Shown one piece after another: positions 408-46,593 of a DNA stretch of 52,561 nucleotides. This stretch comes from a virus. Taxonomy: Duplodnaviria > Caudoviricetes. The notes under the pieces were generated by a model. That model was not told the DNA's origin. It searched no databases and was given only the letters and a program-made list of their open reading frames with translations. The position numbers were made by a program, and so were the translations under genes. The stretch is taken from positions 1-52,561 of the IMG/VR virus record IMGVR_UViG_3300045738_001973, one strand, 5' to 3'. The stretch's first letter is position 1, and each line of letters opens with the position of its first letter.

Positions 408-1571
408 TTAAAGGCCTAAGAGCTTGTTGGCTAGGTCTGCTTTGCTGATTCTTTCGTCTTCTCTTATATATTTTGAATACTTCCTGCGCAGCATTGCTTC
501 GGAGGTGTGCCCCATTTGGTCCATGATCCACGACAAATCTAATCCGGCTGTTAATGCTTGCGAGGCGAATGTGTGTCGGCAATTCACTGGGCCGCGAAAC
601 CTTACCTCTGCTTTTGCCAAATGACGTACCCAGAACCCCTGCCTATATAGCTGAATGTCGGTATACGGGCTGCCCGTTCTGGTGTTGATGAATACCGGCC
701 TAAATTGCTCTTTTCGCGTGGTGCGGTTGTCGCGCTGCAGCACGTCTATTGTTATGGGAGCCAAGTGGCCGGTAATTTGATATTGGCTGCGCAGGGCTTC
801 AAGTGCTGGCTTTAGCAAGTCGATTTTGCGTTTAGAGCGCTTGGTTTTGGTGGCTTTGTATTGCCCGGCCACTATGGCGCGTTGCAGTAATGCGTGAGCG
901 TTGTCTAGGTCTACATCATCCCAGCCCAGCGCCATAGATTCAGAAGGCCTTGGGCCGCTCCACATCGAAAACGCCGCAAAGTTAATTTCGCCCTGTCGGC
1001 TGGTTTTGGTTTTTAGAATGGCGTCGATCTCGGCGCGGGTGAACGGGTCTGGGTCTTCGTCGTCTGGCAGCGAAACCTTAATGCCCTCTACCGGGTTAAA
1101 CGCCGTTTTATTGCGCTGGCGGTAAAGGGTAAATACCTGGTTCATTAACGACACAATCTCTTTAATCGATTTGTTGGACAAGTGCTTCAAATCGTTAGCG
1201 ATCCAGTCTTCTACGTGAATAGAGTCTATTTTGTCGGCTTGGCTGTTGCCCCAGCGCGGCCGAATATGGCCATTTACCCAACGGCGGTAATTTAAAATGG
1301 TACTGGGCGCCACCTGTCTGGCTTTAATCTGCAGCCACGTATCTAGCCATACCGCAACCGTATTGCCTTTAAGCTTGGCGCTATTGGGAAAACGACGGGA
1401 ATAGTCGAAAGTACCGGCCTTAATCTCGTGCTTTATTGTGGCTACCAAACCCTCGGCATAGCGCTTATTCTCGGCCGTTGGGTCAATACCCAGCGATTCG
1501 CGGCACTTTTCGCCATTGAAGTAAAAATACACCCGCAGCGTACCGCCGTGGACTTCCCAACCCTTCGCCAT
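408..1571 (-). CDS. int: Tyrosine integrase with N-terminal arm-binding domain
   Basis: GPRPSE (catalytic R), NCRHTFAS, MGH and the C-terminal Tyr; adjacent to att. Confidence 0.95.
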   Translation of the reverse strand: MAKGWEVHGGTLRVYFYFNGEKCRESLGIDPTAENKRYAEGLVATIKHEIKAGTFDYSRRFPNSAKLKGNTVAVWLDTWLQIKARQVAPSTILNYRRWVNGHIRPRWGNSQADKIDSIHVEDWIANDLKHLSNKSIKEIVSLMNQVFTLYRQRNKTAFNPVEGIKVSLPDDEDPDPFTRAEIDAILKTKTSRQGEINFAAFSMWSGPRPSESMALGWDDVDLDNAHALLQRAIVAGQYKATKTKRSKRKIDLLKPALEALRSQYQITGHLAPITIDVLQRDNRTTRKEQFRPVFINTRTGSPYTDIQLYRQGFWVRHLAKAEVRFRGPVNCRHTFASQALTAGLDLSWIMDQMGHTSEAMLRRKYSKYIREDERISKADLANKLLGL

Positions 1572-3963: not shown

Positions 3964-4055
3964 GGCTTGCGACCTTGTTTAGCAATGCGGTGCCGATAGA
4001 TTAATACCAATAAAATCAGTAATACCTCGACAATAAGTAGCCACCAGCCATTCAT
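3960..4055 (-). CDS. 31-aa single-pass membrane peptide (not in ORF track)
   Basis: MNGWWLLIVEVLLILLVLIYRHRIAKQGRKP*; ATGA overlaps with both neighbours. Confidence 0.65.
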   Translation of the reverse strand: MNGWWLLIVEVLLILLVLIYRHRIAKQGRKP

Positions 4056-5524
4056 GCTGCACTCGCCTTGCGCAGCGCCTGCGCCATATTTACCCCCACT
4101 AAAGCAGCGGCAACCGGTGGGCAAACGCTATTCCCACATTTCGCTATTTGCTGAGTTTTAGTTACCGGTTTGCCACTCGCGTCGCGGTTAAATATGTAAT
4201 TAACCGGAAAGCCTTGGGCCGCGAATAGCTCGTGGGGTTGGAGCATACGCATACCAATATCAACGATCTGATATTGCTCACCGCGAACGGTAACCAGCCC
4301 AAAGCGATCGCGGGTTGAAATGGTATGGAGTGGATCGTCAAGGCTCATACCGTCTCGATCATTGCCGTAATACTTCAAAAGGAAGGCTCTCACCTCGCCG
4401 ACATGGTTTCCGCCAGAGGTAAGCGTAGGTATCGGGTCGGTAACGGCTTGGCCAAACTGGGTGTTGCGCAGCTTGACTAGGTGGCTAGTTACCAAGCTGT
4501 GGTGGTCTTGCTGGGTAATGGTGCCAATCGCCTGCTCTACCCCGTGGCCGGTAACGCCGCCGTAGTGCTTAGCCAAAAATGCCGACACCAAACCGATTGG
4601 GGCAGAACCACCGGGTCTTTGTACGTAGCTGGAAGCGGTTACGGTATGTAGTGGGCTTGCTATATCGTGGCCAATAGAACCACTACGAAATTTGGTAACG
4701 TGCGGCGATATCGCCAATGGATCTGCGCCGTTAACAATAAAGGGCTTAGGGTTATCGATGACAAAACGCTGCAAACCCTTAGCAATCCTTCTAAGGGTGT
4801 TCTCTGCCAAGGGCTTTTTACGGCCGAAAATACTTGGGCATGGCAATGTCCAATCGATAATGTCGGCGGCGGTACGGTACTTTTTTAAACCTGGGCCATG
4901 AGTTGGTTTTGGCCACAGAATGGGCTGGCCATCACACCGCGCCACCATAAAAAGGCGCTTTCTTATGGTTGGGGCTCCATAGTCGCAGGCCCGCAATGTT
5001 TTAAATTCCACCTTGTAGCCTTGCCGCCCCAGAGCATTTTTAAAGCTTTGAAACGTTTGCCCTTTGCGTTTAGGGCAGGGTCTTAGGTCGCCATTTTCAT
5101 CAGATATCAGAGGCCCCCACGTTGTGAATTCCTCTACATTTTCCAGCATGATCACACGGGGCTTTACCGTGGCCGCCCAGCGCAACACAACCCACGCCAG
5201 CCCTCGTACTCGAGGCGAAACCGGTGCGCCGCCTTTGGCTTTTGAGAAATGGCGACAATCCGGACTAAACCATGCCAGACCAACCGGCTGCCCTTGGCAG
5301 GCCTCGCGGGGGTCAACCTCCCACACGCTTTCGCAATAATGCTTAGTGCAAGGATGGTTGACCGTGTGCATGCTAATGGCTTGGGGGTCGTGGTTAATCG
5401 CGATATCTACTGGCCGCCCTAGCGCCATTTCAATCCCGGTAGACGCCCCGCCGCCACCGGCAAAGCTATCAATTAGTAGCTCGCCCATATTTAAACGGAG
5501 CTGTGGCACGGTTCGGTAATTCAT
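4052..5524 (-). CDS. DNA cytosine-C5 methyltransferase (orphan)
   Basis: DSFAGGGG (motif I), SPDC (IV), ENV (VI), RKR (VIII), GNSV (X). Confidence 0.93.
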   Translation of the reverse strand: MNYRTVPQLRLNMGELLIDSFAGGGGASTGIEMALGRPVDIAINHDPQAISMHTVNHPCTKHYCESVWEVDPREACQGQPVGLAWFSPDCRHFSKAKGGAPVSPRVRGLAWVVLRWAATVKPRVIMLENVEEFTTWGPLISDENGDLRPCPKRKGQTFQSFKNALGRQGYKVEFKTLRACDYGAPTIRKRLFMVARCDGQPILWPKPTHGPGLKKYRTAADIIDWTLPCPSIFGRKKPLAENTLRRIAKGLQRFVIDNPKPFIVNGADPLAISPHVTKFRSGSIGHDIASPLHTVTASSYVQRPGGSAPIGLVSAFLAKHYGGVTGHGVEQAIGTITQQDHHSLVTSHLVKLRNTQFGQAVTDPIPTLTSGGNHVGEVRAFLLKYYGNDRDGMSLDDPLHTISTRDRFGLVTVRGEQYQIVDIGMRMLQPHELFAAQGFPVNYIFNRDASGKPVTKTQQIAKCGNSVCPPVAAALVGVNMAQALRKASAA

Positions 5525-12745: not shown

Positions 12746-13009
12746 CTAGGCGCCATGTTCTGAAAAAAACTTATTGAGGCCCGCAAGGGTTGGTGGATCG
12801 CTAAGCACGCGCGCTATGGCTTCGTTATAGGCCGCAACCAATTTGGGGCAGTGTTCTATAGGCACCGAACCACGGCGCCGCCAATTATCAACAGACTGGG
12901 TATTGGCGAGATTTGCAGCCAGGGCTACACCGCTACGACCCAAAATAGAAATGACTTTTTCTATATCGTTAGTGGCTTCCGAATTGGAGCAAGGCTTTTG
13001 CTGTGTCAT
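12746..13009 (-). CDS. Cro-like HTH regulator
   Basis: ALAANL..QSVDNWRRRGSVP; divergent from the repressor. Confidence 0.75.
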   Translation of the reverse strand: MTQQKPCSNSEATNDIEKVISILGRSGVALAANLANTQSVDNWRRRGSVPIEHCPKLVAAYNEAIARVLSDPPTLAGLNKFFSEHGA

Positions 13010-13130
13010 CTTTAAATATTCACTTTGTTTGTTTTGACGAACATATAGTTACGTGACAGCAAACAGAAAAGCAAACAAAATATTACTTTTAGCAAACAAT
13101 TTTTAGCTCACTACAAATCGGACTACAGCC
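13010..13130. promoter_or_regulatory. Immunity switch region with repeated operator-like motif
   Basis: AGCAAACA at 13058, 13070 and 13091, plus inverted TGTTTG at 13026, between divergent HTH genes. Confidence 0.55.
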
Positions 13131-13886
13131 ATGATTAGCGAAGAGATCACACGGATCGAAGAGCGGCTTAAGGATTTGGGTTTAACGAAAACGGAATTTG
13201 CAATAGCGCTAGGCGCGCCAGAAGACAATGCCAGCTCCTACTACAACAACTGGCGCCATAGAGACTTACCAAAATCACGACTAAGTGCCGCGGCAGATTT
13301 TTTAAATACCACCATTGAATGGATTACTAGGGGCGAGCGCAAACTAAGTGTGGCTACCGACAGCTGCCCACGGCAAGAAATTGCTATTGAATACACCCGA
13401 CGAATACACGCCGACGGCGGTATTACTGCCTGCGTCACCGTCAATGACCGAAACTTTTTTATTGTTGGCATGCACGAAGACATGGTGCAAGTCACCCTGT
13501 CTATTGTCACCGTGGCGGGCGGCATAAAAGCGGCGGCTATTAAAGAAATGATCGAGCTCGGCGTACTGTCTAGGCGCATCAAGTTAAGCGCTAACGAATA
13601 TGATCGGTTTATCCGGGGCATGGTGTCGATCGATGATTTGTTTAAGGGCGGCCGTGAAAGTTACTGGGGCCGTATAGAAATAATCACCCACGACAGTATT
13701 TACACGCCAGAAGTGAGGGACAGAGGCGGTAATTACGTAGAGCTGCCCAGCCAAATAGGGGTGATATTAGAGCTGTTTAAAACCCAGCAAATCGATTTAG
13801 ACGACTTAATAACCTTAGAACAAATTGCCTGTCGGCTGGCGGCTAAAGCGGATTACATTGCGGCCAAAAATTTAATTTCAAAGTAA
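13131..13886 (+). CDS. CI-like repressor (N-terminal XRE HTH, unrecognised C-terminal domain)
   Basis: GLTKTEFAIALG..NNW..AADFLNTTIEWITRG. Confidence 0.75.
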   Translation: MISEEITRIEERLKDLGLTKTEFAIALGAPEDNASSYYNNWRHRDLPKSRLSAAADFLNTTIEWITRGERKLSVATDSCPRQEIAIEYTRRIHADGGITACVTVNDRNFFIVGMHEDMVQVTLSIVTVAGGIKAAAIKEMIELGVLSRRIKLSANEYDRFIRGMVSIDDLFKGGRESYWGRIEIITHDSIYTPEVRDRGGNYVELPSQIGVILELFKTQQIDLDDLITLEQIACRLAAKADYIAAKNLISK

Positions 13887-13894
13887 ATTTTCGC

Positions 13895-13982
13895 TTGCAA
13901 TAACACTCAATGAGTGTATTATAGGAACTGTAGACAGCAATACCGCTGCTACGAAATCACGAATAGATAGGTGATAAAATGA
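13895..13982 (+). promoter_or_regulatory. Promoter/operator/leader copy 1
   Basis: TTGCAA-16-TATTAT with the palindrome ACACTCA-A-TGAGTGT (13903-13917) in the spacer; RBS AGGTG. Confidence 0.8.
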
Positions 13983-14260
13983 CTACTTACACAATCCCAC
14001 AAAAAATGTCTGGCACTGGCTCAATCCACGACATCGCCAGCGACATGCAAGACCGCGAAATCAAGTTTGGCAAAGGTTGCAAATACGCAGTGGTGCTGTC
14101 CAGCTACTACGGCGGCAAAGGCTACACCACCCACCAAACTGCCGAAGCGGCTGCCCGCGCAAGCCGTAAAAATAAAGACTATTCCCACGCCATTATCGAC
14201 ACAGATGGCAACCGGTACACCACTGACTATGACAATCAGCTGGTAAAGATTACCGAATAA
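13979..14260 (+). CDS. Small protein, anti-CRISPR candidate (93 aa)
   Basis: First gene after the operator-bearing promoter and directly upstream of the Aca-like HTH. The function is inferred from context only. Confidence 0.6.
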   Translation: MTTYTIPQKMSGTGSIHDIASDMQDREIKFGKGCKYAVVLSSYYGGKGYTTHQTAEAAARASRKNKDYSHAIIDTDGNRYTTDYDNQLVKITE

Positions 14261-14290
14261 ACCACCCCGCCGCCCACTAGGGCGGCAACC
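14260..14290 (+). repeat. 31-bp hairpin repeat copy 1
   Basis: GCCGCCC-ACTA-GGGCGGC; 29/31 identical to 14813-14843. Confidence 0.85.
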
Positions 14291-14302
14291 ACCGAGACCA
14301 CT

Positions 14303-14521
14303 ATGATCACCCAACCCACACCCGAACAAATCAAAGCCGCGCGCACTGCTGCTGGCGACTCGCAGGCCCAGGCGGCTGAGCGTATTTATGCGCCCAGCTA
14401 CCGCACTTGGCAAAATTGGGAGAAAGACGGCGCAGGGTCGCGCGCCATGCCGCTGGCCGCGTGGGAATTGTATTTAATCAAGACAGATCAAACCGATAAA
14501 ATTATTTTTCAAAAAGATTAA
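14303..14521 (+). CDS. Small HTH protein, Aca-like repressor
   Basis: TPEQIKAAR..SQAQAAERI..RTWQNWE..MP..WEL, a pattern resembling Aca3-type HTHs. Confidence 0.75.
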   Translation: MITQPTPEQIKAARTAAGDSQAQAAERIYAPSYRTWQNWEKDGAGSRAMPLAAWELYLIKTDQTDKIIFQKD

Positions 14522-14529
14522 GAAAGGGC

Positions 14530-14618
14530 TTGTTTTTACACTCAATGAGTGTATTATTGGAACTGTAGACAGCAATACCGCTGCTACGAAAATCACGAAT
14601 AGATAGGTGATAAAATGA
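14530..14618 (+). promoter_or_regulatory. Promoter/operator/leader copy 2
   Basis: 14538-14618 equals 13903-13982 except for one substitution and one indel. Confidence 0.8.
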
Positions 14619-14776
14619 AAATTGAAAAAATGTACATGAACATCGAGACCGGATCAGTTGATACCCGTGACGGCTGGGACTACGAGAACGAATCTGGCGA
14701 GACTGTGAACGCGGTTGATCTTGGCGAAGTTGTCGAGGTTAAAAAGGACGACAAAGGCGAGTGGGTCGAAGCATGA
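14615..14776 (+). CDS. 53-aa acidic protein, anti-CRISPR candidate (not in ORF track)
   Basis: MKIEKMYMNIETGSVDTRDGWDYENESGETVNAVDLGEVVEVKKDDKGEWVEA*; same RBS and ATG context as 13979. Confidence 0.7.
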   Translation: MKIEKMYMNIETGSVDTRDGWDYENESGETVNAVDLGEVVEVKKDDKGEWVEA

Positions 14777-14812
14777 CCCCAAGCGATAAATTCGAAGGCG
14801 TTTCACACCACT

Positions 14813-14843
14813 AACCACCTCGCCGCCCACCAGGGCGGCAACC
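14813..14843 (+). repeat. 31-bp hairpin repeat copy 2
   Basis: GCCGCCC-ACCA-GGGCGGC. Confidence 0.85.
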
Positions 14844-14865
14844 CTCCTCACCCAAGGCCACCAAC

Positions 14866-15813
14866 ATGCAGCCCACCGAGCACCTACACGCCCTAGGCCG
14901 TCGCTACCCCAGCGCATGGCAGCAGATTAACGATCTGCGCCGGGATAGGGGCAAAGACATACCAGACTGGCCAGCGTGGTGTTTTTTGCCGATGGGCGGG
15001 TTTTACGCGATTGTCAGTGCGCAGCATCAAACACAGCAGCTTGGTTTGCAGCAGATCCCCGACGTGTCGGCGCTGGCCGCACTGGGTACGTGGCGTTATA
15101 GCCAAGGTATTTACCGCTTTGATTCGCAAGCGCAGCAGGCGCTGGCGAGCACATTACTGCACGGCGAGATGCCGACGGACGTTTTGCTACGCCTGCCGGA
15201 GTGGTGTTTGTACATCGAGACGCCGGATCAGCAGTGGTTTGGCCAGCCGCTGCACGGCTTTTGGTGTCATTTAGAGAGCGACGCTAACACGCAGCGCCGT
15301 GAGTTACGCTTTTTGCTTAACCATGGCGACAGCCTCAGCCCGCAAATTTTGCACTTGGGCGGCTGGACAGTGACCGAGGCAGTAGATAGATACATAAGCG
15401 AGGCAAAACGCCAAGGCCGCGCCGCCGGCATAACGCTACCCGCCGACGCCAGCGAGGCCGTGGAGCACATCAGCGCGCAAATACAGCCGCTACTCGCGAT
15501 GATTTTGTACTTGTGCAGCGACGAGCCAGAGATTACAGACCGCGAGCACCCCGAGCAAAGGCCAAGCCGCCCACGCCCAACACGCACAAAAAAAGGTTGG
15601 AAGCTCTTTGCGCCAAAAGCCCCAAAAATTTGGCAAGTAGGCGAGCAACTCGGCGAGGCGCTGCGCAAAGACCACGGCGCAGACCCCACCGGACGCAGGG
15701 TAAAACCACACCTACGCCGCGCCCACTGGCACGGCTTTTGGAGCGGCCCCCGCGACGGCGAGCGGCGGTTTGGGTATAAATGGCTGCCGCCGACGGTGGT
15801 AGCCGCAGACTAG
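14866..15813 (+). CDS. acrVA2: AcrVA2-family anti-CRISPR protein
   Basis: WRYSQGIYRFD, LPEWCLYI, GFW, LYLCSDEPEI and PHLRRAHWHGFW match the AcrVA2 motifs in order; similar length. Confidence 0.85.
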   Translation: MQPTEHLHALGRRYPSAWQQINDLRRDRGKDIPDWPAWCFLPMGGFYAIVSAQHQTQQLGLQQIPDVSALAALGTWRYSQGIYRFDSQAQQALASTLLHGEMPTDVLLRLPEWCLYIETPDQQWFGQPLHGFWCHLESDANTQRRELRFLLNHGDSLSPQILHLGGWTVTEAVDRYISEAKRQGRAAGITLPADASEAVEHISAQIQPLLAMILYLCSDEPEITDREHPEQRPSRPRPTRTKKGWKLFAPKAPKIWQVGEQLGEALRKDHGADPTGRRVKPHLRRAHWHGFWSGPRDGERRFGYKWLPPTVVAAD

Positions 15814-15824
15814 ATTTTTAATTA

Positions 15825-16805
15825 TCACTTCTTGGTCACCAGCTCCACACTGGTGACCAAGCCCGCACTGCCCGCCGTATGATTTAAGTCATCAATCACC
15901 CAGTTGTGGGCGTTTATCTCTGCTTTAAATCCCGTTAATTCCACCGGTTGGCCATTGACCAGCCCCGGCATACCAGGCGCCACGCTTAGGCTCATGGTGG
16001 CGTCGCCGCGTTGTATTCTTGCCCATTCTGCTTTTGCTGCCTCGGTGGCTTGCTGCGCGTCTGGTAGTGGGTCGCGGATCTGTTTGGTGTAGCCTTCTGC
16101 GCCAGCGGTCACTTTTACGGTTTGGGCGGTGTCGGTGTTGTACCAGCTGGCGGTGGCGCCGGTGAATCGGCTATTGCGGTCGGCGGTTTTGTAGCGATGG
16201 TCTGTGCATTGGTTTTTGTTAATGCTGGCCTGTGGCAAGGCGGCGCCGCTGGCGGTGGCGCCCTGCCCCTTTGGGTAAAATAATAAATAGCCGTTTTTGC
16301 TGGTGGCCACGGCGTCGAATTGCTGGCCAATGCGGTTTAAAAAGGCGCTGTCTGATTCGGCGGTTTGGTTAAGTTGCTGCAGCGCCACGCTGGCAAGGTC
16401 TGGCGCCACTTTGGGTTTAAGTGCGTAACGCTCGGCAATGCTGGCCACTAAATTGCCAAGGGTTGTGCCCGGCTCCCAATGGGTAGAGCGCAGGGTTTTG
16501 AATTCGTCTCTAAAATTGGCGCTGCGAGCGGTAATAATCAGTTTGTCTGGGGCGCCAGAATGCTCTACATCGTCTACGGTAAAGGTGCCTTTGTTGTGCA
16601 GCCCCTGCCCCATAAAACCTAGCTGCAGGGTAAGTTTAGCGCCCTTGGGTGGAATATTTAGGCTGCCGTCGCTGTCGTCTAGCTCTAACACCAACTGGTC
16701 TGCGGTGGTGCCGCTGGCGTCGTGATAACTCACGCTTAAAATTCGCTTGTTAACCTCGCTCGCAAGGGCCACGCCGTTGGCGGTGATTTCATAAACGGGG
16801 GTCAT
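15825..16805 (-). CDS. P2 gpD-like late control/baseplate hub
   Basis: D.L.LELDDSDG..P.KGA.L..LG, QTAESD; position after gpU. Confidence 0.9.
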   Translation of the reverse strand: MTPVYEITANGVALASEVNKRILSVSYHDASGTTADQLVLELDDSDGSLNIPPKGAKLTLQLGFMGQGLHNKGTFTVDDVEHSGAPDKLIITARSANFRDEFKTLRSTHWEPGTTLGNLVASIAERYALKPKVAPDLASVALQQLNQTAESDSAFLNRIGQQFDAVATSKNGYLLFYPKGQGATASGAALPQASINKNQCTDHRYKTADRNSRFTGATASWYNTDTAQTVKVTAGAEGYTKQIRDPLPDAQQATEAAKAEWARIQRGDATMSLSVAPGMPGLVNGQPVELTGFKAEINAHNWVIDDLNHTAGSAGLVTSVELVTKK

Positions 16806-17248
16806 GCTATGTTTTCCGCAAACGAGCTGTTGTTGGTGTTCATGGCTAGGTCGCCAATGGTTTCTTTTTCGCCGGTGTCGTTGCGCACCAGCACCACGCT
16901 AAATTCTATTTTGCGGGGGCTGCCGTCGGGAAAGAAATAGCTGCCAGTTTCATCTACCGAATCAATAAACCAAAATCCCTGTGGTTCGCCGTTGCCTTGC
17001 ATTAGTACCCACGCTTTACCGCTGTCGGCTAGGTCGCGTAGATCTTGCAGGCTTTGGCCGCCACCGGTTAGCTCGGGTGCCAGTGTGCCGCTTAGGGTTA
17101 TACGGTCTTCGCCGGGGCCGTTAAATTGGTGGGCAGGCAGTTGGCCTAGGCGGTTATTGGCCGCCCAGCGCCATTGGGTGCTGCGCTGTTTACGCTCAAA
17201 TGGGAGGCTGCTAATGCTAAAAACAAACATGCCTAACGACATTAACAT
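16802..17248 (-). CDS. P2 gpU-like tail protein
   Basis: MLMSLGMFVFS..QF.GPGED.ITLSG. Confidence 0.9.
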   Translation of the reverse strand: MLMSLGMFVFSISSLPFERKQRSTQWRWAANNRLGQLPAHQFNGPGEDRITLSGTLAPELTGGGQSLQDLRDLADSGKAWVLMQGNGEPQGFWFIDSVDETGSYFFPDGSPRKIEFSVVLVRNDTGEKETIGDLAMNTNNSSFAENIA

Positions 17249-17257
17249 GGTAGCTCC

Positions 17258-19801
17258 TTAGCTGTGGTCGGCATACGACGCACCGCGGCGGCGAGACTTG
17301 CGGCGGTCTATTTCGTCTATGGTTTTTTTCACAAGCTGGTCGGCATTTTCGCCGGGTTGCTGCTGCACATTTATGGTGTATTGGCTGTTGTCGGCAAAGT
17401 GATTTTGGGGCTGCGCATTAGCCGTTATCGGCGGTGTGGCTTGCACCGGCACACTACTTGTTACCAGCGGCGCAGTGGTGTTGTTTGTCACATTATTAAT
17501 GGGGCCGGCAGCGGCAGGCATAGCCACAGCTTCGCGCGTTGCGGGGAAAATATTGCTGTTTTTTGGGTTCGCAAGCGTAGCAACTTGGCTCGGCTCAGCG
17601 CTTTTATCGTTAACTTTAAGCGGTGAGTCTTTAAAAAGTGCTGCGCCTACCTTGCCACCTAGCCAGTCGCCGCCCATGCTGCCAATAATCGAACCAACCA
17701 AGCCGCCAATGGCGGTACCAATAATGGGCACAACAGAGCCAAGGGCTGCGCCAGCGGCGGCACCAGTGAGCGCACCACCAATGCCGCCCACGTCTTGCGA
17801 TATGGCTGCGCCTTTGTTTAGGTTTGCGTCGTCGCTCATCAGTGTAGAGCCAATAGACAGCGCACCAAGGCCTGCACCGATCCACCCCGCTTTACCGCCT
17901 AGGCCTTTGGCTAAACGGCCTAGCTTACCCCCTTTGCCGCCGCCAGCAACAGCGCCGCCCAGCCCACCAGCGGCATTTTGCAGGGCTGCCCGTTTAGCGC
18001 TTACGCCCAAACCAGAAATGGCCACACGCAGCGCAGCAATGGCCATAAGCACCGGCGCCACGGCCAATGCCAAAGCGCCTAAACCGCCCACCAAAATCAT
18101 GGCCACTTTAGTTGCACCAGGGAATTTGTCGGTGAGCCAGTCTAGGGCGTCAATTAATTTTATGGCCGCGCCAGACAGCCAGTTAATAACGGGCAATAGC
18201 TGTTCGCCCAACTTGGTTTGAAAAGCGTCCCAGCGCTGGGCAAGTAGTTGGGTTTTGTTGGCGGAGGTATTGGCGCGGTTTTGAAATTCGCGCTCCATAC
18301 TGCCCGCAAATTTAGAACTGTCGGCCACGGTGTCTAGGGCCTTTTTGTAAACTTCTAAATTACCCGCCAGCAAAGAGATATCGTCGGCATATTCTAGGCC
18401 AAATAGATCGGTAAGCACGCCCGCACGGTTCTGTTTATCTAGCTGGCCTAAGGTGTTTAAAAACTCATCGAGTGCGCCTTGGCCGTTCTGCGCAACCATG
18501 TATTCCATGTCGCCAGCGGATATGCCAATTTCGTCGAGGGCATCTTGAAACTTAGCGCCCTGCTTTGTGGCGGTTTGCAGTTTGTTAAGCATGGCATTAA
18601 TGGCTGTACCGGCGACCTCGGGTTTTTTGCCCAGGGCAATAAACGCATCACCCAGCGCAGCGGTTTGCACGGTAGTTAAACCAAACTGGGTGGCCGTACC
18701 GCCCACACGCATTAGCACGTCGACAATTTCTTTGGCTTTAGCGGCGGTGTTGTCTGAAAGGTGATTTACCGCGTCGCCTAAATTGGTCATTTGAGCAATG
18801 GGAATTTTATACACGTTGCTCAGCTTGGCCATTGATTCGCCCGCTTGCTCCGGCGCCATGTCAAAGGCGGTAGACATTTTGGCGGCTACTTGCACAAACT
18901 CGGGCAAGTCGCTGCGACCAATACCCAGCTGCCCGCCTTGGGCTGCAATGGCGGCCAAACCCTCTTTTACAATGGGTATGCTGCGGGTCATGTCCAGTAG
19001 CGTTAGGCTAAATTCTTTGAACTGCAGTGGCGAATCAAACTCCACCACTTTTTTAACATCGGCCATGGCCGACTCAAACGCGACCGCCTCGGCTAGTGGG
19101 TTTTTTAAGAAATTAAGCGCCTTACTGCCTACGTTACTTAAGCCCGCCGCCACAATGGTGGTGTTAGCTGCTTTTTGCAGGGTTTCATTGTGGGCAGATT
19201 GCGCCGCTGCCAGCTTGCCGTGGGCTTGCGACACCGCCTTAATTTTGGCTTGGGTGCGGGCGTAGGCTTCACCAAGCCGGTTTTGTGCCCCAGTTAAATC
19301 GCGGGTTTCTATGCCTTCGGCTTTAAGTTTGGTGCGCAGCTGTGCGGCCCGCTCAATGGCTAGGCGGCGTTGTTTGGTGGTTTTTTCTAGGGCTTTTTCG
19401 GCGCGCTCGTGCTCGCGTATAAGGGTTTTATTCTCTTTGGCTTGGGCCTTGAGGTTGTTAATGGTTTTGGCGTCTACCTTTACCCCGCTGGCTTTTAGAT
19501 CTTGCAGGGTTTTAAGGTTGGCTTGGGTGATTTTGAGCTGGTCGGCCTCCTTCTCCCGCGCTAGGCGCAGCATTTTTACTTTTTCTGCGGCTTGGCTTGA
19601 GGCGTCTTTGGCCTTTTTAGAGGTCAGTTCGTATTCTTGCAGGCGCGCAACGGCGCGGCGCTGATTACCAATATTTTTTAATTCGTTGCCGGTGGCCGAA
19701 AGCTTTTGGGCAAGCTCGTTGCTTATGCCTGCTAGTCTCTGAGCTGGACCGCTCCACTTATCAACAAGGCTGAGGGTTAGCGCTGTATTAAGATTACTCA
19801 T
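17258..19801 (-). CDS. Tail tape measure protein
   Basis: FESAMADVKKVV; Ala/Gly-rich; expected position. Confidence 0.92.
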   Translation of the reverse strand: MSNLNTALTLSLVDKWSGPAQRLAGISNELAQKLSATGNELKNIGNQRRAVARLQEYELTSKKAKDASSQAAEKVKMLRLAREKEADQLKITQANLKTLQDLKASGVKVDAKTINNLKAQAKENKTLIREHERAEKALEKTTKQRRLAIERAAQLRTKLKAEGIETRDLTGAQNRLGEAYARTQAKIKAVSQAHGKLAAAQSAHNETLQKAANTTIVAAGLSNVGSKALNFLKNPLAEAVAFESAMADVKKVVEFDSPLQFKEFSLTLLDMTRSIPIVKEGLAAIAAQGGQLGIGRSDLPEFVQVAAKMSTAFDMAPEQAGESMAKLSNVYKIPIAQMTNLGDAVNHLSDNTAAKAKEIVDVLMRVGGTATQFGLTTVQTAALGDAFIALGKKPEVAGTAINAMLNKLQTATKQGAKFQDALDEIGISAGDMEYMVAQNGQGALDEFLNTLGQLDKQNRAGVLTDLFGLEYADDISLLAGNLEVYKKALDTVADSSKFAGSMEREFQNRANTSANKTQLLAQRWDAFQTKLGEQLLPVINWLSGAAIKLIDALDWLTDKFPGATKVAMILVGGLGALALAVAPVLMAIAALRVAISGLGVSAKRAALQNAAGGLGGAVAGGGKGGKLGRLAKGLGGKAGWIGAGLGALSIGSTLMSDDANLNKGAAISQDVGGIGGALTGAAAGAALGSVVPIIGTAIGGLVGSIIGSMGGDWLGGKVGAALFKDSPLKVNDKSAEPSQVATLANPKNSNIFPATREAVAMPAAAGPINNVTNNTTAPLVTSSVPVQATPPITANAQPQNHFADNSQYTINVQQQPGENADQLVKKTIDEIDRRKSRRRGASYADHS

Positions 19802-37852: not shown

Positions 37853-39601
37853 ATGAAAACAGCACAAGACGACAGAACAGAAGCGCGGCTACTTTACTGG
37901 CAGGGTTACCGCATACCCGAGATCACCAAGGCCCTTGGTGTGCTTGGCCCTACCCTGCACAGTTGGAAGCGTCGCGACGATTGGGACTCGGCACCGGTGG
38001 TGCAGCGGGTTGAACAATCTATCGACGCGAGACTGTGCCAGTTATTGAAGAAAAATGAAAAGACCGACCAAGATTTAAAGGAGGTTGAAGCCCTCACTAA
38101 AGCCCTTGAGCGCACTGCCCGCATTCGTCGATACAACGACGGCGGCAACGAGGCAGATTTAAACCCTAATGTGAAAAATCGCAATAGAGGCCCGCGCAAG
38201 TCTAATAAAAAAGTTAAAAACGAGATTTCACCAGAAGCCTTAGACCGTATCAAAGAAGGCTTTATGGATGAAATATTTGGCTATCAAAAAGAGTGGCTCC
38301 ACAAAAAAACACTGCACCGTATTCGCAATATTTTAAAAAGCCGCCAAATTGGGGCCACTTATTATTTCTCTAACGAGGCGTTAGTAGACGCGGCCACCAC
38401 TGGCGACAATCAAATTTTCATCTCCGCTTCTAAAGCGCAGGCCCACGTTTTTAGAAATTATGTGGTGCAGGCCGCGAAAAAGTGGGCCGACGTTGAGTTA
38501 ACCGGCGACCCTATTGTGCTGCCCAACGGCGCAGAGCTGATTTTTCTGTCGACCAACTCTAATACTGCGCAGAGCTACCACGGCCATCTGTATGTGGATG
38601 AATACTTTTGGATCCAGCGCTTTCAGAATTTACGCAAAGTGGCGTCCGGCATGGCGGCACACAAGAAGTGGCGGCAAACCTATTTTTCTACCCCCAGCAG
38701 CGTTAACCACGAGGCCTACCCCTTCTGGACCGGCTCACTGTTTAACCGTGGTCGTAAAAAAGACGACCAGATCCAGCTTGATGTAAGCCACAAAAAGCTG
38801 GCTGCAGGCCGCATGTGCGAAGACGGCCAGTGGCGGCAAATAGTGACTTTGCTGGACGCAGAGGCCAAGGGCTGCGACCTGTTCGACATTGAGCAACTAA
38901 AGCTCGAGTACAGCCCGGAAGAAATGGCAAACCTGTTTATGTGCGAGTTTGTCGACGATACCTTCTCGGTTTTCAGTTTTGCAGAGCTCACCGCCTGCAT
39001 GGTGGACAGCTGGGTGGTGTGGGACGACTACAAACCATTAGCCCCCCGCCCACTGGGCAGTCGCGAGGTTTGGATCGGCTATGATCCATCACGGACCAGC
39101 GATAATGCCAGCTGTGTGGTGGTGGCGCCGTCGCCGGTGCCGGGCGGCAAACATCGCATTCTTGAAAAGCTCAACTGGGTAGGCATGGACTTTGTAGACC
39201 AGGCGGCCCGCATGAAAACCCTCACCGAAATTTACAACGTGACCCACATAGGCATCGACAAAACATCGATAGGCTTGGGCGTTTTCGACATGGTAAAGCG
39301 GTTTTTCCCGCGCGCGGTGGGTTACGACTACAACCCCTCGATCAAATCCCAAATGGTGCTCAAGGCAAAAGACATTATCAGCCACGGCCGCCTCGAATTT
39401 GATAACGGTTGGACCGACATGGTGCACGCCATGCTGATGATCAAACGCGCCATGACCGCTGGCGGTGGCCAAATGACTTACCAAGCCGGACGCACCAACG
39501 ACGGCGGCCATGCTGATTTGGCATGGGCGCTAATGCACGCACTCGACAACGCCCCGCTTCACGAAAGCATGGCAAATACAGGAATATTGGAGATTTTCTA
39601 A
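37853..39601 (+). CDS. Terminase ATPase subunit P
   Basis: LKSRQIGAT, YVDEYFW, GYDPS, HADLAWA. Confidence 0.96.
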   Translation: MKTAQDDRTEARLLYWQGYRIPEITKALGVLGPTLHSWKRRDDWDSAPVVQRVEQSIDARLCQLLKKNEKTDQDLKEVEALTKALERTARIRRYNDGGNEADLNPNVKNRNRGPRKSNKKVKNEISPEALDRIKEGFMDEIFGYQKEWLHKKTLHRIRNILKSRQIGATYYFSNEALVDAATTGDNQIFISASKAQAHVFRNYVVQAAKKWADVELTGDPIVLPNGAELIFLSTNSNTAQSYHGHLYVDEYFWIQRFQNLRKVASGMAAHKKWRQTYFSTPSSVNHEAYPFWTGSLFNRGRKKDDQIQLDVSHKKLAAGRMCEDGQWRQIVTLLDAEAKGCDLFDIEQLKLEYSPEEMANLFMCEFVDDTFSVFSFAELTACMVDSWVVWDDYKPLAPRPLGSREVWIGYDPSRTSDNASCVVVAPSPVPGGKHRILEKLNWVGMDFVDQAARMKTLTEIYNVTHIGIDKTSIGLGVFDMVKRFFPRAVGYDYNPSIKSQMVLKAKDIISHGRLEFDNGWTDMVHAMLMIKRAMTAGGGQMTYQAGRTNDGGHADLAWALMHALDNAPLHESMANTGILEIF

Positions 39602-40599
39602 TGACCACAAAAACCAAAAAAGCCCCAAAAACAGAGGCCTTTACCTTTGGTGAGCCTGAGCCGGTCATGGCCGCGCGCGACATTATGGGCTATGCCGAAT
39701 CGTGGTTTAGTGGCAAATGGTACGAGCCGCCTATTTCACTGCCTGGGCTAGCCAAGACCTATGGCGCCAGCCCTTACCATTCCAGCCCTATTCAGGTAAA
39801 AAAGAATATTCTGGTCAAAACCTTTAAGCCCCACCCGCTGCTTAGCCGCCAGACTTTTGCAGGGTTTGTGCTCGATGACCTTATTTTTGGCAATGCCTAT
39901 TTAGAGCGGGTAGACAATCGCCTGGGCAAACCCATGGAGCTAAAGCACAGCTTGGCCAAATACACCCGCCGCGCCAAAGAAGACAAATACTGGTTTGCTC
40001 ACAGCTACGCCAACCCCCATGAATTTAAAGCCGATTCGGTATTTCATCTTATACAGCCGGACATAAACCAAGAAATTTACGGCGTGCCCGAATACCTATC
40101 TAGCCTGCAGTCGGCATGGCTAAACGAAAGTGCCACCATATTTCGGCGCCGCTACTACGACAACGGTAGCCACGCTGGCTTTATCCTGTATATGAATGAC
40201 GCTGGCCAAAGCAGTGAAGATATCGACGCGATCCGCAAGGCCATGAAAGAAAGCAAAGGCCCCGGCAACTTCAAAAACCTGTTTATGTATGCCCCCAACG
40301 GCAAAAAAGACGGCCTGCAAATTATCCCCATTAGCGAAGTCAGCGCCAAAGACGAATTTTTCAACATTAAAAACGTCACCCGCGACGACCTAATGGCAGG
40401 CCACCGCGTACCCGCGCAAATGATGGGCATCATACCCACCAACACCACCGGCCTAGGCGACCCAGAAAAAGCCGCCCGCGTCTTCGCCGCCAACGAAATT
40501 GAACCAATGCAAGAACGCTACCGCGCCCTAAACGACTGGATGGGCGACGAAATCATCACCTTTAATAAATACGAAATCGAAGGACTGGGCACCACCTAG
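39601..40599 (+). CDS. Portal protein Q (PBSX family; start 39601)
   Basis: AFTFGEP, DINQEIYG.PEY, NGSHAGFI, GPGNFKNLF. Confidence 0.96.
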   Translation: MTTKTKKAPKTEAFTFGEPEPVMAARDIMGYAESWFSGKWYEPPISLPGLAKTYGASPYHSSPIQVKKNILVKTFKPHPLLSRQTFAGFVLDDLIFGNAYLERVDNRLGKPMELKHSLAKYTRRAKEDKYWFAHSYANPHEFKADSVFHLIQPDINQEIYGVPEYLSSLQSAWLNESATIFRRRYYDNGSHAGFILYMNDAGQSSEDIDAIRKAMKESKGPGNFKNLFMYAPNGKKDGLQIIPISEVSAKDEFFNIKNVTRDDLMAGHRVPAQMMGIIPTNTTGLGDPEKAARVFAANEIEPMQERYRALNDWMGDEIITFNKYEIEGLGTT

Positions 40600-41349: not shown

Positions 41350-41379
41350 AGGGTTCGAATCCCTCCCTCACCGCCATTT
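41350..41379 (+). repeat. Prophage att core (distal copy of tRNA 3' end)
   Basis: Identical to 304-333. Confidence 0.95.
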
Positions 41380-42951
41380 TGATATGAATATGGGCACTTG
41401 CAAAGAGGTGCCCATATTTCTATCTACCCTCGATATAATTGCTGCAAGGGGCAGAAGCCCTCCGCTAAACTTCAGCTTTGTCGGATAGACGACAATCTCT
41501 TTCACAATCGCGACTAATAGCGCTTTAGTAGCCTCATTGTCATCTCCTAGTAGTATATTCCTTGCCGCTTGCGCAAATAGCGAGATATGGCTTTGACCAA
41601 ATTTTTTAATTGGCAACTGCATGCGCTCCTTTAAACTTCTCGCCTCCATCTGAAGCCCATCTTGACTTCGCTTTAACCGACCAATTGTGTCTTTTGCCGT
41701 ACTGTCTAGCTCCAGCTCACCTTTTGCAATGTGCATGATTAGCTTTTCGTATTGATCCGTCACTTTCGAGGATTTAGCCTGAACAGCTAATAGACGCTGC
41801 CGATCCGCCCTAAACACTTCTTTGTGCTTCACTTTTAACGTCTGTACATACTCAGACAGGGCCTCCTCCGGCATTACTAGCTCCGCAATCAATTCTTTAA
41901 CCTTATTTTCTAGCGGTACTTTTGGAAGATTGGGGCACGTACATACGTTAATATTTTCCTTTATTCTTCGAACACATCTGTAATACCAATAATGTCCGCT
42001 TTTTCCGGAAGATAAGACAAGGTTTTTCCTACAGGAAGAACATTTAAGTAAGCCGGTCAAAATAGAGGGGCTACGGATTCCTTTTTCTTCTGTATTTTTT
42101 TGGGGGGCTCGCTGTTTAAGCTCCGCCTGAACTCTATTGAATACTTCCACATCCAAAATTTGAGGATTTTTATAATATATGGGCTTATAGTCCGCTCGTT
42201 TAATACGGCGATCAGCTGCGTATTCTCGTTGAGCGATGTAAATTGGGTCGGTGAGCACTCTATGAACCTTCATTGTCGTCCAATTCGAAACGTTTGCAGG
42301 GATCCCTGAAGTATTAAGGTAAGTCGCAATTTTTTTAACACCGTAGGGCCGCCCACAATTACCTTCAATTGCTAATCGGTAGATATCCCTTACAATTTCG
42401 GCTTGCTCACTGTTAACTACCAAGATTTTTTTGCTTTTATCCGAGTCTGGCGCAGGAACGGATTTGTACCCATAGGGGACTGCACCACCGACAAAGAAAC
42501 CTTTCTCTACCGCCTCAGCTTTACGATCTGAAACGACTTTACTATTTTGTCGGCTTTGATGCTCATTAACTGTCCCTAATAAACTTTTAACCAAATGCGC
42601 TAATGCGGGATCTGTGGGAAATGATTCCGTCACTGAAAAAAATTCAAAACCTAGGTCAGCAATTAAGCTGTCGGAAACTAACCGCTTCTGCTCATTCCGC
42701 GCGAAGCGACTAAGGGAATAGACGACTACTCCCTGGTACTCAACATCACTAGACTGAATATCACTAAGCATTTGTTCCAGCGCTGGTCGTTTCCCCTTGA
42801 AGGCTGAATATCCACCCTCAACATAATGCTTGACCACTACATGATCGTTTTGCGAAGCCCATTTTGTAATAGCCAATTTCTGGCCATCTAGGGAGTCGCT
42901 CTCTGTTGCCTGACGAGAAGTAGAAACCCTAATATAAGCTGCTAATTTCAT
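41368..42951 (-). CDS. Large serine recombinase (integrase)
   Basis: YIRVST catalytic Ser, SLSRFAR, recombinase domain, Zn-ribbon C..C/C..C and coiled coil. Confidence 0.93.
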   Translation of the reverse strand: MKLAAYIRVSTSRQATESDSLDGQKLAITKWASQNDHVVVKHYVEGGYSAFKGKRPALEQMLSDIQSSDVEYQGVVVYSLSRFARNEQKRLVSDSLIADLGFEFFSVTESFPTDPALAHLVKSLLGTVNEHQSRQNSKVVSDRKAEAVEKGFFVGGAVPYGYKSVPAPDSDKSKKILVVNSEQAEIVRDIYRLAIEGNCGRPYGVKKIATYLNTSGIPANVSNWTTMKVHRVLTDPIYIAQREYAADRRIKRADYKPIYYKNPQILDVEVFNRVQAELKQRAPQKNTEEKGIRSPSILTGLLKCSSCRKNLVLSSGKSGHYWYYRCVRRIKENINVCTCPNLPKVPLENKVKELIAELVMPEEALSEYVQTLKVKHKEVFRADRQRLLAVQAKSSKVTDQYEKLIMHIAKGELELDSTAKDTIGRLKRSQDGLQMEARSLKERMQLPIKKFGQSHISLFAQAARNILLGDDNEATKALLVAIVKEIVVYPTKLKFSGGLLPLAAIISRVDRNMGTSLQVPIFISKWR

Positions 42952-42952
42952 C

Positions 42953-43153
42953 TCACTGCTCCTTTTTATCTTGTTTTAAGGCCAGTAAATCTTGATTTGT
43001 TCTTGCCTCAAATTGGAGACTATTAAACTCATGAACGATTGCATTGAGATTAAGATCAAGCAATTTACAGATAGTCTCGTGGGTGAAAGCCAGATGAATC
43101 TCTGCACTAACATCTTGAGCGACCCTTAAATGCACCTTTTTGTTCATGGTCAC
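42953..43153 (-). CDS. Small protein abutting the recombinase
   Basis: RBS AGGAG; the stop is 1 nt from the recombinase ATG. Confidence 0.55.
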   Translation of the reverse strand: MTMNKKVHLRVAQDVSAEIHLAFTHETICKLLDLNLNAIVHEFNSLQFEARTNQDLLALKQDKKEQ

Positions 43154-43477
43154 TCTCCTGATATGAATCTGCTAACAGATGATCAAAAAGTATCCAATTA
43201 CAGAAGGTTAATCAAGGGGGGATATTAATAAATTCTTTTTAAATTCAACAAGTTAGGATCTAAAAAATAAAAACATTGCATTAACTTTCCTAAAGATCAT
43301 TAGTAATCAGAAGGTTAAACCAAGTTAATCTATTAACTGATATTACGAATGGATATAGATTTATAATTAAAATAAAGGTTGTCGGCTGTGTATATAGAAA
43401 ACTTGTATAAGAATCTATTGCTACCGCCTATATTCAAAGCCCTTTAGTGCCGATTTAAAACATTGTTGTTGCCTCGG

Positions 43478-43774
43478 TTACGGCCACCAAGGGTCTCCTA
43501 CCCATTTTTGTACGACTTTCAAATACCTGCCCTCAAGACAGGAAACCGCATCAAATAGATCAAAAGTAATTCGATTTTCGTGTAGCCATACACCCACTAA
43601 AAAACATAGCATAATTCCCTCTGTCTTCGAACAAGTGTAAAGGTAGGCATCTACTCTATCGAGCAAACACTCCCGACTAGAAAGATCCCAGAATGGCAGA
43701 AATTCAGGCAGGTCGTCTTCCAGTAACACAGCAAATCTAGCCTGACCCAAGCTTAAATTAATATTTAGCTCCAC
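43478..43774 (-). CDS. Hypothetical protein
   Basis: RBS GAGG; ends W..DPWWP. Confidence 0.6.
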   Translation of the reverse strand: MELNINLSLGQARFAVLLEDDLPEFLPFWDLSSRECLLDRVDAYLYTCSKTEGIMLCFLVGVWLHENRITFDLFDAVSCLEGRYLKVVQKWVGDPWWP

Positions 43775-43833
43775 AATGCACCTCTTTCAGGTCACTAAGA
43801 TACTGCCCAGCAGGTCGGAATTTAAAGACTTCG

Positions 43834-44238
43834 TTATCTCGTCTCGGGAAATAAAAACGTATTCATGTCTAGATCCTCTGGAGTTAATTTATAACCATCA
43901 GAAGTAAGCATGATCGTCTTACCAACTTCAATGTCATAGGACGCTGGGCGTTCACTAGAGAATCGACCTGGGCCTTGGAGTTTGTAGCAAGTATTTTGGG
44001 TCTCAACGGTTAATGTATCGATATCAAGAGATATTATCAGCGAAGACCGCATTGCAGCTCCCGGCTTCCATCGCCCTAATCTATCGTCAACAACGGAGCC
44101 AGTAAAAAATCGGGGACTAAAGCTAGAGTCTTTTTCGAGCTGTTGAACGATGAAATCTACTGGTAGGTGATCACGTACATCGTGTACACACCAGGACTCA
44201 ATTATCCCCCCAAAAGGCTTTGTGCTCTCCTGCGCCAT
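43834..44238 (-). CDS. Hypothetical protein
   Basis: D.LGRW.PG..MRSS..ETQNT.Y.L.GPG. Confidence 0.6.
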   Translation of the reverse strand: MAQESTKPFGGIIESWCVHDVRDHLPVDFIVQQLEKDSSFSPRFFTGSVVDDRLGRWKPGAAMRSSLIISLDIDTLTVETQNTCYKLQGPGRFSSERPASYDIEVGKTIMLTSDGYKLTPEDLDMNTFLFPETR

Positions 44239-44380
44239 TTTTTTGACTCACGAAAATTAGTTACGAATGTTATATGCTAAAAAACCGAAAATGTCAAAAA
44301 AATGAATAAAAACAATAATTTACGGAATAATAACTCACAGCATTTACTCGTACCAAGGTAAGCGCTCAATTAACCACGCC

Positions 44381-45913: not shown

Positions 45914-45937
45914 GACGCGTATTATACCAAAAGACCG

Positions 45938-46294
45938 TTAGCTAACCGAGTCAAAATACAAGGTTTCATGCGGTTTATTGCGCCAAATATCCAAGCCATC
46001 GAGCAAGAGGTTTAAGTCGCGGCCATCGCGTAATTCATAGCCTGACTCGCACTGGCGAGGCCATTTAAAGCGCTGCTTTTCTAGGCGCTTATACCAGACC
46101 ACAAAACCATTTCGCTCCCAATACAGGAGTTTGATTTTATCTCGGCCACGATTGCAAAACACAAACAAGACTTCCATCATCGGCGAGAGCGCCAGCTCGT
46201 TTTCAACCAGCGCGGCCAAGCCATTGATGGACTTGCGCATATCTACCGGGGCCATGTACAAATAGACCTCAATATTGGATGTCGGCCGCAGCAT
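45938..46294 (-). CDS. tnpB: IS66 accessory protein TnpB (start 46294)
   Basis: PVDMRKSINGL, KLLYWERNGF..YKRLE; TGATG overlap with tnpA. Confidence 0.93.
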   Translation of the reverse strand: MLRPTSNIEVYLYMAPVDMRKSINGLAALVENELALSPMMEVLFVFCNRGRDKIKLLYWERNGFVVWYKRLEKQRFKWPRQCESGYELRDGRDLNLLLDGLDIWRNKPHETLYFDSVS

Positions 46295-46593
46295 CAGTTC
46301 GATTCCCGAAGGAGTTGCAGCACGGCGGGCAACACGACAGGCAAATCGCTGGCGGATAATTCCAATCGAACGCCGAGCGGTAAATTCATTATCATACGAG
46401 ATGAGGCTGGCATGCCGCCCAGTTTTAATAATTTTGCTGAGGGCGCTTTTGCGGGGCTCAATCGATTGCGCCAATACGCGAAGTTATGAAATTTGATCTC
46501 ATGCTGCTTGCAATACGCGGCTTGGGATAGTCCGCTGCCTTGCCAGGCGGTGACATGGTCTTGCCAGAATTGGGCTTTGTTGATGGTGGTCAT
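46294..46593 (-). CDS. tnpA: IS66 accessory protein TnpA
   Basis: W..SGLSQAAYC....F.YWR. Confidence 0.9.
   Translation of the reverse strand: MTTINKAQFWQDHVTAWQGSGLSQAAYCKQHEIKFHNFAYWRNRLSPAKAPSAKLLKLGGMPASSRMIMNLPLGVRLELSASDLPVVLPAVLQLLRESN

Follow-up and report, generated by a model that had tools for sequence, protein, structure and literature searches.

The protein ORF93 probably serves a P2-like temperate phage as the lead effector of an anti-defence operon under Aca10-type repression, a reading to which I give a probability of roughly 0.6. ORF93, named for its 93 residues, is encoded in the IMG/VR virus record IMGVR_UViG_3300045738_001973 (52,561 nucleotides, analysed whole and called the window below), and it would belong to an uncharacterised family that inhibits a host immune function. 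I favour this reading because ORF93 and its relatives come first in operons whose closing genes encode unrelated repressors, two of which belong to established Aca families (the signature by which anti-CRISPR (Acr) proteins have been discovered), and because their neighbours include AcrVA2/FinQ-like, DarA/ParB and ArdC proteins and orphan methylases. Clustering of anti-defence genes has been described by Pinilla-Redondo et al. (accessible text of PMC7648647).

New anti-CRISPRs and, lately, other anti-defence genes have been found most productively through guilt by association anchored on Aca genes. Several features make the ORF93 family stand out: at least three unrelated regulators, AcrVA2/FinQ-like and anti-restriction company, unusual conservation, a wide spread in environmental phages yet absence from the GenBank phage records and plasmids that were searched, and a high-confidence fold model that resembles nothing solved. 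If active, ORF93 would bring an inhibitor fold not seen before and perhaps a new target as well. The window itself offers a compact natural example of what appears to be one Aca repressor acting over two copied regulatory cassettes.

The operon and its repressor

A preliminary description of the window had listed ORF93 as a gene, and it is indeed a real gene under purifying selection. A Shine-Dalgarno sequence, AGGTGA, can be read 6 nt 5' of the ATG of an open frame that is matched by 407 clusters at 90% identity, with a median ratio of nonsynonymous to synonymous substitution rates (dN/dS) of 0.19 against the window copy (38 of 85 pairs with computable dS; dS was saturated in the other 47). 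The database also holds a shorter, 84-residue gene-caller form (P0001), but the 93-residue start is preferred because homologs conserve residues 1-9.

ORF93 had further been placed first after an operator-controlled promoter, and such a promoter, P1, does precede it with a palindrome inside (Table 1). The perfect palindrome, ACACTCAATGAGTGT, has exactly two copies in the window; when up to three mismatches are allowed the pattern matches 7 times on the two strands of the window, against 0.59 expected, and the exact operator together with its -10 pattern has no further copy in IMG/VR. The local Aca protein would be the predicted ligand of this putative operator. The 5' untranslated region (5'UTR) of ORF93 folds at -14.8 kcal/mol (z -4.64, with 0 of 200 shuffles equally stable), and in the computed fold its second hairpin pairs with the Shine-Dalgarno sequence, AGGUGA. 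The GC-rich hairpin between ORF93 and the next gene folds at -16.5 kcal/mol (z -4.68) and might serve as an attenuator, a site of processing or a stabiliser of the mRNA. A scan of window positions 13000-16000 against Rfam gave 0 matches.

That next gene is the Aca-like gene that the preliminary description had expected there. Its 72-residue product, a helix-turn-helix (HTH) protein, matches PDB 7xi5 with a phmmer E of 3.1e-9 over residues 4-62 (28 identical residues in 59 aligned columns, counted by hand); the match to Aca3 (9vt3) is at E 0.056 and there is none in Pfam. PDB 7xi5 is Aca10 of Pseudomonas citronellolis, and the accessible text of PMC9410881 gives R44 of that protein as critical for DNA binding. 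The corresponding residue of the window protein, R47, is the same in all 4 local homologs.

The acrIC7-acrIC6-aca10 operon of P. citronellolis, which carries AcrIC7 and AcrIC6 (PMC7913775), is accordingly an instructive comparison. Like the window operon it ends in a small HTH gene of the Aca10 family in which the Arg of the R44 position is kept, and the two promoters share the form TTGCAA-N16-TATT(A/C)T with a palindrome of core CTCA-N-TGAG between the hexamers; the published promoter is TTGCAA-N16-TATTCT, and the published Aca10 binding site inside it is ATACGCTCA-T-TGAGCGTAT (accessible text of PMC9410881). Furthermore, the 5'UTR hairpin of the window begins about where the accessible text of PMC13551039 puts an RNA motif associated with aca10. 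However, the arms of the window palindrome are 7 bp long rather than 9-10 bp and differ from the published site outside the core, and the window operon has one effector gene instead of two and a duplicated regulatory cassette.

The duplicate lies 635 bp downstream of the original. Positions 13893-13995 (promoter, operator, 5'UTR and start codon) recur directly at 14528-14631 in two pieces of 92% and 86% identity, the first of which pairs 13893-13956 with 14528-14591, and the hairpin-bearing segment 14260-14290 recurs, also in direct orientation and nearly identical, at 14813-14843. The 23-nt GC-hairpin element has only these two copies in the window, one after each small open reading frame (ORF). 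It is as if an effector cassette of promoter, operator, 5'UTR and post-ORF hairpin had been copied. The second promoter, P2, whose -35 hexamer is weaker than that of P1, was not called by the consensus promoter scan of the window.

Behind the second cassette come two genes. The product of the first, ORF53, is strongly acidic (charge counted by eye from the translation) and has no Pfam match above cut-off and no PHROG or NCBIfam match; it counts as a second anti-defence candidate and may be a DNA mimic. The other encodes a 315-residue protein that matches AcrVA2 (PDB 7ci1) over residues 67-312 at E 3.6e-23 and phrog_6160 at E 1.7e-63, and that keeps the C-terminal H-x-R-x-x-H stretch (PHLRRAHWHG), which includes residues functionally important in AcrVA2 according to the accessible text of bioRxiv 10.1101/2022.11.29.518452. 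Relatives of this gene are found in Lactobacillus, Leptospira, Moraxella, Erwinia and Shewanella phages. The same text reports that AcrVA2 homologs mostly occur without Cas12a and that one of them, FinQ, inhibits F-plasmid conjugation, which is not a defence system. AcrVA2/FinQ proteins are widespread, usually occur where their known target is absent, and are recurrent neighbours of ORF93 homologs; at about 320 residues they are unrelated to ORF93, and the link between the two is one of neighbourhood only.

For aca10 operons, Feussner et al. (2026; accessible text of PMC13551039) predict a promoter DNA motif and an RNA hairpin immediately behind the start of transcription, and they expect Aca to control anti-defence operons in the neighbourhood as well. 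The duplicated cassette before ORF53 and the AcrVA2/FinQ gene matches this predicted multi-operon control, with one aca, two operator-bearing promoters, conserved 5'UTRs and adjacent operons. What sets the window apart is that about 100 bp of promoter, operator and 5'UTR, as well as the post-ORF hairpin, are near-identical direct repeats.

A conserved family and its company

The ORF93 family has no name, described family or structure among the libraries searched, a comparison that covers families with a hidden Markov model in Pfam, NCBIfam or PHROGs or with a solved structure. Within these libraries and the PDB, the earlier suggestion of an undescribed family is upheld, and the family may already figure in an unannotated candidate list. 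ORF93 matches 0 Pfam and 0 NCBIfam families; its sole PHROG match, to phrog_21696 (function not assigned), is marginal at E 0.039, and against PDB sequences the best E is 0.19 for the single sequence and 0.0055 for a profile, the latter to a designed repeat protein. The best ESM Atlas match (0.87) is to an unnamed cluster, and a literature search for the motif YYGGKGY returned no papers. Relatives themselves are plentiful: the 119 listed besides the window's own protein are 62-79% identical to it and mostly 88-100 residues long, and an exhaustive HMMER search of 1.84 billion representatives (clustered at 50% identity) gave 231 matches at E<=1e-3, 107 of them at E<=1e-10. All 26 cluster members listed are unnamed or called 'hypothetical protein', and tblastn found nothing in 50,697 GenBank phage records or 72,556 PLSDB plasmids. 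This last result sets aside, only indirectly, an identity with AcrIF17, which is associated with Aca10 (PMC9410906) and enriched on conjugative plasmids (accessible text of PMC7648647). DUF5633 was dropped, having a weak match in one homolog and none in the window protein.

The best-kept positions in an alignment of 106 sequences are I6, I16, R26, I28, A37, Y44 and G77 (>=0.86), followed by H52, S21, D25 and D18 (0.80-0.84). The close subfamily has His, Asp, Ser, Arg and Lys residues that never vary, which had suggested an enzyme; the idea is weakened by the low conservation of H17 (0.65) and K47 (0.38) in this alignment. One relative, P0138, is a natural fusion of an HTH_3 domain (E 7e-8) to the ORF93 domain and recalls self-regulating Acr fusions of the AcrIIA1 and AcrIF24 type (accessible text of PMC9410881). 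P0132 joins the ORF93 domain to a C-terminal stretch that looks like a ribbon-helix-helix (RHH) by eye only, and P0208 is a tandem duplication of a diverged ORF93 domain. Two long relatives are spurious and were taken as local matches: P0240, an NHL/beta-propeller repeat protein, and P0217, with seven matched stretches and only FBPase_C below cut-off.

A first AlphaFold model, made with 26 sequences, had a mean predicted local distance difference test (pLDDT) score of 79.9; a second, with 106 sequences, reached pLDDT 95.8 and a predicted template modelling (pTM) score of 0.86, with the same seven strands and one helix. Foldseek found nothing better in the PDB than E 0.47 (first model) and 1.7 (second), and the best VIA-align scores against 48,161 chains were Z 4.1 and 4.0, where, by the tool's own note, models without clear matches typically reach Z 7-8. 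AcrIF9 (Z 2.7) and Dmd (Z 3.0) are at noise level against the second model. The best BFVD match of the first model is an uncharacterised 280-residue phage protein (A0A8S5PK41, E 6.7e-3, TMq 0.59). Several of the top weak VIA-align matches belong to ZnF-UBP domains (Z 2.2-3.7) or to chains of splicing factors (6ah0_W, Z 4.0; 4msx_A, Z 3.4), the latter of which I take to carry a ZnF-UBP domain as well; ORF93 contains no zinc-ligand pattern, and this resemblance is a lead only. As modelled, ORF93 thus shows no resemblance that these searches could detect to a solved Acr, sponge or toxin, which is not proof of a new fold.

To place the family in its genomic surroundings, loci were taken from species genomes (8 of 30 pattern matches), IMG/VR (28 of 62) and metagenomes (129 of 239, the best 80 kept), and with the window they collapse to 90 unique loci. 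These span 36-66% GC and include Haemophilus, Rhodocyclales and Gemmatimonadales records. The preliminary description had proposed checking whether homologs neighbour other aca or acr genes, and they do. In L013 the homolog is followed, with a 4-bp overlap, by an Aca1 gene (PDB 7vjn, E 3.6e-23; residues 2-68 of 70 align) and preceded by a promoter, TTGACT-N17-TATAGT, that carries GGCACACTGTGCC, the Aca1 inverted repeat (accessible text of PMC9410881). The arrangement is that of JBD30-type Aca1 operons (7vjn, 7c0g), with the homolog in the Acr slot, a GGCACACTGTGCC promoter and Aca1 overlapping the stop codon; in contrast to the effectors of those operons, ORF93 matches no solved Acr and nothing in the GenBank phage records. 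Aca10-like genes lie downstream of the homolog in L004 and L019 and upstream in L005, and NikA-like RHH genes overlap its stop codon in L011, L015, L016 and L041 (Pfam scores of 30.0 and 28.2 bits, where the cut-off is 27, in the two members scanned). AcrVA2-like genes occur in 4 of the 90 unique loci, the window counted: 8 nt (L025) and 77 nt (L111) downstream of the homolog, where the operon contains no small regulator, and upstream of it in divergent orientation in L031. An ORF upstream in L025 looks HTH-like by eye.

Among the other neighbours are a Dam methylase (L023), a DUF3560-methyltransferase protein (L004) and a Toprim/DUF3991 protein (L102). A tally of 61 downstream and 58 upstream ORFs from 32 loci, leaving out duplicates L018, L021 and L027 and the partial L036, adds ArdC-N with MPTase-PolyVal, two RadC proteins, C5 and N6 methylases and a PAPS reductase. 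To judge by its predicted genes, L031 (3618-9895) is a compact anti-defence island, in which the divergent AcrVA2-like gene, a promoter with the palindrome GGGTAAAATTACCC and the homolog are followed, 128 nt downstream of the homolog, by a 1148-residue polyvalent protein with DarA_N and ddrB-ParB domains.

Three recurrent partners have only sub-threshold DNA-binding matches: C0 (124 residues, 7 Haemophilus-type loci), C2 (122 residues, 6 loci) and C3 (60 residues, 4 loci). Comparison of partner clusters C2 and C1 with the NikA-like RHH cluster by hhalign gave nothing, and their RHH nature derives from weak Pfam matches and my own reading. The Haemophilus-type loci (L006, L074, L079, L082, L087, L097 and L112) have a fixed operon led by the ORF93 homolog; C0 is followed by a protein of 220-240 residues, which is cysteine-rich in four loci and a different, HTH-like one in three, and the operon ends with a 205-residue protein in four loci and then a 65-residue protein with weak RHH matches.

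Within 150 nt upstream, a near-consensus sigma-70 promoter is present in 23 of 83 unique homolog loci, against 46 of 608 random windows and 64 of 678 other ORFs, and one overlapped by a palindrome in 10 of 83, against 5 of 608 and 8 of 678. Most of the -10 hexamers stand 43-57 nt before the ATG.

What ORF93 might inhibit

The preliminary description took ORF93 for a candidate anti-CRISPR in the classic position before an aca gene. The position stands, and the guilt by association has grown stronger with the Aca10 repressor, its promoter and operator and the sister AcrVA2/FinQ gene; the specificity of the term 'anti-CRISPR' is unsupported, and an anti-defence effector fits the evidence better. 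A classical anti-CRISPR, that is, a stoichiometric binder of a Cas effector (I-C, I-E, I-F or V-A), would be a special case of the anti-defence reading. It is suggested by the canonical first position of ORF93 and its homologs in operons closed by Aca10 and Aca1, by the AcrVA2-family gene nearby, and by the presence of AcrIC7 and AcrIC6 in the known Aca10 operon (PMC7913775). I nevertheless consider it doubtful and do not commit to it, because typical Cas binders are far less conserved between distant hosts than this family is: identities of 62-79% among the listed relatives, from loci of such different GC content, are unusual for proteins that bind fast-evolving Cas surfaces. Moreover, Cas1 (PF01867) was found in just one of five host genomes of homolog loci, and not in a 2.0-Mb Haemophilus genome, which is weak evidence given that the genomes are incomplete and that the host of a prophage is not necessarily its usual prey; the neighbours include anti-restriction genes; AcrVA2 relatives themselves usually lack Cas12a company (accessible text of bioRxiv 10.1101/2022.11.29.518452); and known acr genes make up about one fifth of Aca-regulated genes (~420 among ~1900; accessible text of PMC13551039). 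The lack of a sequence or fold match to any solved Acr also counts against this special case.

The same layout would be expected if ORF93 were the toxin of a toxin-first type II toxin-antitoxin (TA) pair in the style of HigBA or MqsRA, with the downstream HTH or RHH protein as antitoxin and autorepressor. Partner families vary in TA systems, as they do here. A small conserved protein followed by a small DNA-binding protein under an autoregulated palindromic promoter agrees with HigBA2 and MqsRA modules in gene order and sizes, and Aca10 resembles the antitoxin HigA2, whose system has the toxin gene first (PMC9410906). Yet the same operator stands before a sister operon with an AcrVA2-family gene, the partner in L013 is a full-length Aca1, of a family characterised as acr repressors, and in L025 and L111 the homolog is followed by an AcrVA2-like gene instead of a small regulator. 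In addition, ORF93 matches no Pfam toxin family, the rows listed by the fold searches include no chain of RelE, ParE or MqsR type (which is not exclusive), a natural HTH-ORF93 fusion exists (P0138), and the gene context is one of anti-defence. Many homologs have no identifiable adjacent DNA-binding gene, small regulators being hard to recognise and the ORF calls crude. Altogether, I regard a toxin as very unlikely. An accessory protein of another kind (for host takeover, superinfection exclusion, inter-element conflict or modulation of the lysis-lysogeny decision) that merely shares early repressed expression is less improbable than a toxin, but still unlikely. ORF93 does adjoin a cI-like repressor in a variable region of a P2-like phage, the AcrVA2 homolog FinQ blocks conjugation rather than defence, and one homolog lies near a VgrG gene (L007); however, what recurs beside it across unrelated elements is operons closed by Aca1, Aca10 or RHH regulators, together with anti-restriction genes, and not any one lineage or circuit.

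Several points weigh against an anti-defence function itself, which is proposed for ORF93 wholly by guilt by association. The slot between the repressor gene and gpD in P2-like phages is also a hotspot of phage-borne defence cargo. Most neighbours of the homologs are unique small ORFs without assigned function, and about 13 of the 84 unique loci with downstream sequence have a robust regulator or an AcrVA2-like gene beside the homolog; a further 17 have C0, C2 or C3 partners, whose DNA-binding nature comes from weak matches or my own reading. Locus ORFs were called by a crude longest-ORF rule, and the neighbour lists are noisy. Finally, in L007 (5522-9432, a Rhizobacter metagenome-assembled genome) the homolog has a VgrG-type gene (Phage_GPD, T6SS_Vgr, DUF2345) 846 nt downstream, a setting that is ill-fitting with a phage anti-defence picture.

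If ORF93 is an anti-defence effector, published work on Aca1, Aca2 and Aca10 suggests how the locus might operate. P1 would fire on DNA entry or induction, and ORF93 and Aca would be produced together; as the Aca dimer accumulates it would bind the identical palindromes in P1 and P2 and shut both operons, with the result that a single early pulse would deliver ORF93, ORF53 and the AcrVA2-like protein. Translation may be controlled as well, by the 5'UTR hairpin whose pairing partner in the computed fold is the Shine-Dalgarno sequence. ORF93 itself would be a compact alpha/beta domain that neutralises a defence component, and it is probably not a DNA mimic because its charge, counted from the translation, is roughly neutral. 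As phages of very different hosts carry highly conserved members of the family, a conserved target (a shared node, cofactor or signal) is favoured over one variant Cas surface. I tentatively propose that ORF93 founds a widespread anti-defence family without detectable structural relative, whose target is an immunity node that is conserved throughout Proteobacteria (such as a housekeeping protein needed by defences, a shared cofactor or a molecule used in immune signalling) and not a particular Cas protein. Such a target would explain identities of 60-79% from Haemophilus to Rhodocyclales phages and the association with at least three unrelated repressor families; I hold this proposal to be only slightly more probable than a classical anti-CRISPR.

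The phage and its other features

The window, a 52.5-kb record rated complete by CheckV, is the genome of a P2-like temperate phage. Ogr/Delta zinc-finger, CII-like and Cro/CI-like genes were found with Pfam and PHROGs, and the gene for ORF93 falls in the interval from the CI-like repressor gene to the gpD-like gene. The large terminase is less than 60% identical to that of all GenBank phages, save one record in the 60-80% band.

Table 1. Positions of the main features in the window, with the evidence on which each was assigned
Feature	Position	Strand	Basis and remarks
Integrase	408-1571		
CI-like repressor gene	13131-13886		HTH_26, E 0.0014 (Pfam), and PHROGs
Sigma-70 promoter P1	13895-13922	+	TTGCAA-N16-TATTAT; found independently by consensus scan
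Putative operator O1	13903-13917	.	15-bp perfect palindrome ACACTCA-A-TGAGTGT between -35 and -10; 2 exact copies in window
5'UTR of ORF93	13929-13978	+	Two hairpins (13929-13953, 13956-13975); transcription start inferred
ORF93, uncharacterised conserved protein, candidate anti-defence effector	13979-14260	+	93 residues, ATG start, TAA stop
GC-rich hairpin	14269-14286	+	GCCGCCC-ACUA-GGGCGGC, without U-tract; between ORF93 and aca
Aca10-family HTH repressor gene	14303-14521	+	72 residues; PDB 7xi5, E 3.1e-9
Promoter P2	14530-14557	+	-35 TTGTTT, -10 TATTAT; direct repeat of P1 region
Putative operator O2	14538-14552		Identical to O1; pattern search
Copied 5'UTR	14564-14614	+	Same two hairpins; repeat and fold (z -4.85, 0 of 200 shuffles as stable)
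ORF53, acidic protein, second candidate effector	14615-14776	+	53 residues; behind P2, O2 and copied 5'UTR
GC-rich hairpin, second copy	14822-14839	+	After ORF53; repeat and fold
AcrVA2/FinQ-family gene	14866-15813	+	315 residues; PDB 7ci1 and phrog_6160
gpD, gpU and tape-measure-like ORFs	15825-19801		Assigned by eye

Elsewhere within the phage, a C-5 cytosine DNA methylase gene (4052-5524, minus strand) may encode an orphan methylase guarding against restriction. A portal ORF was assigned by eye at 39523-40599. Past it and past the phage-end ORFs, likewise assigned by eye, a stretch of low GC content (36-51%) at 41368-51468 on the minus strand holds a serine recombinase, IS66 genes, a protein with Mrr_cat and an nSTAND3 NTPase (47206-49464) and an AAA_15 ATPase (49576-51468), and resembles either defence cargo or a defence island of the host.

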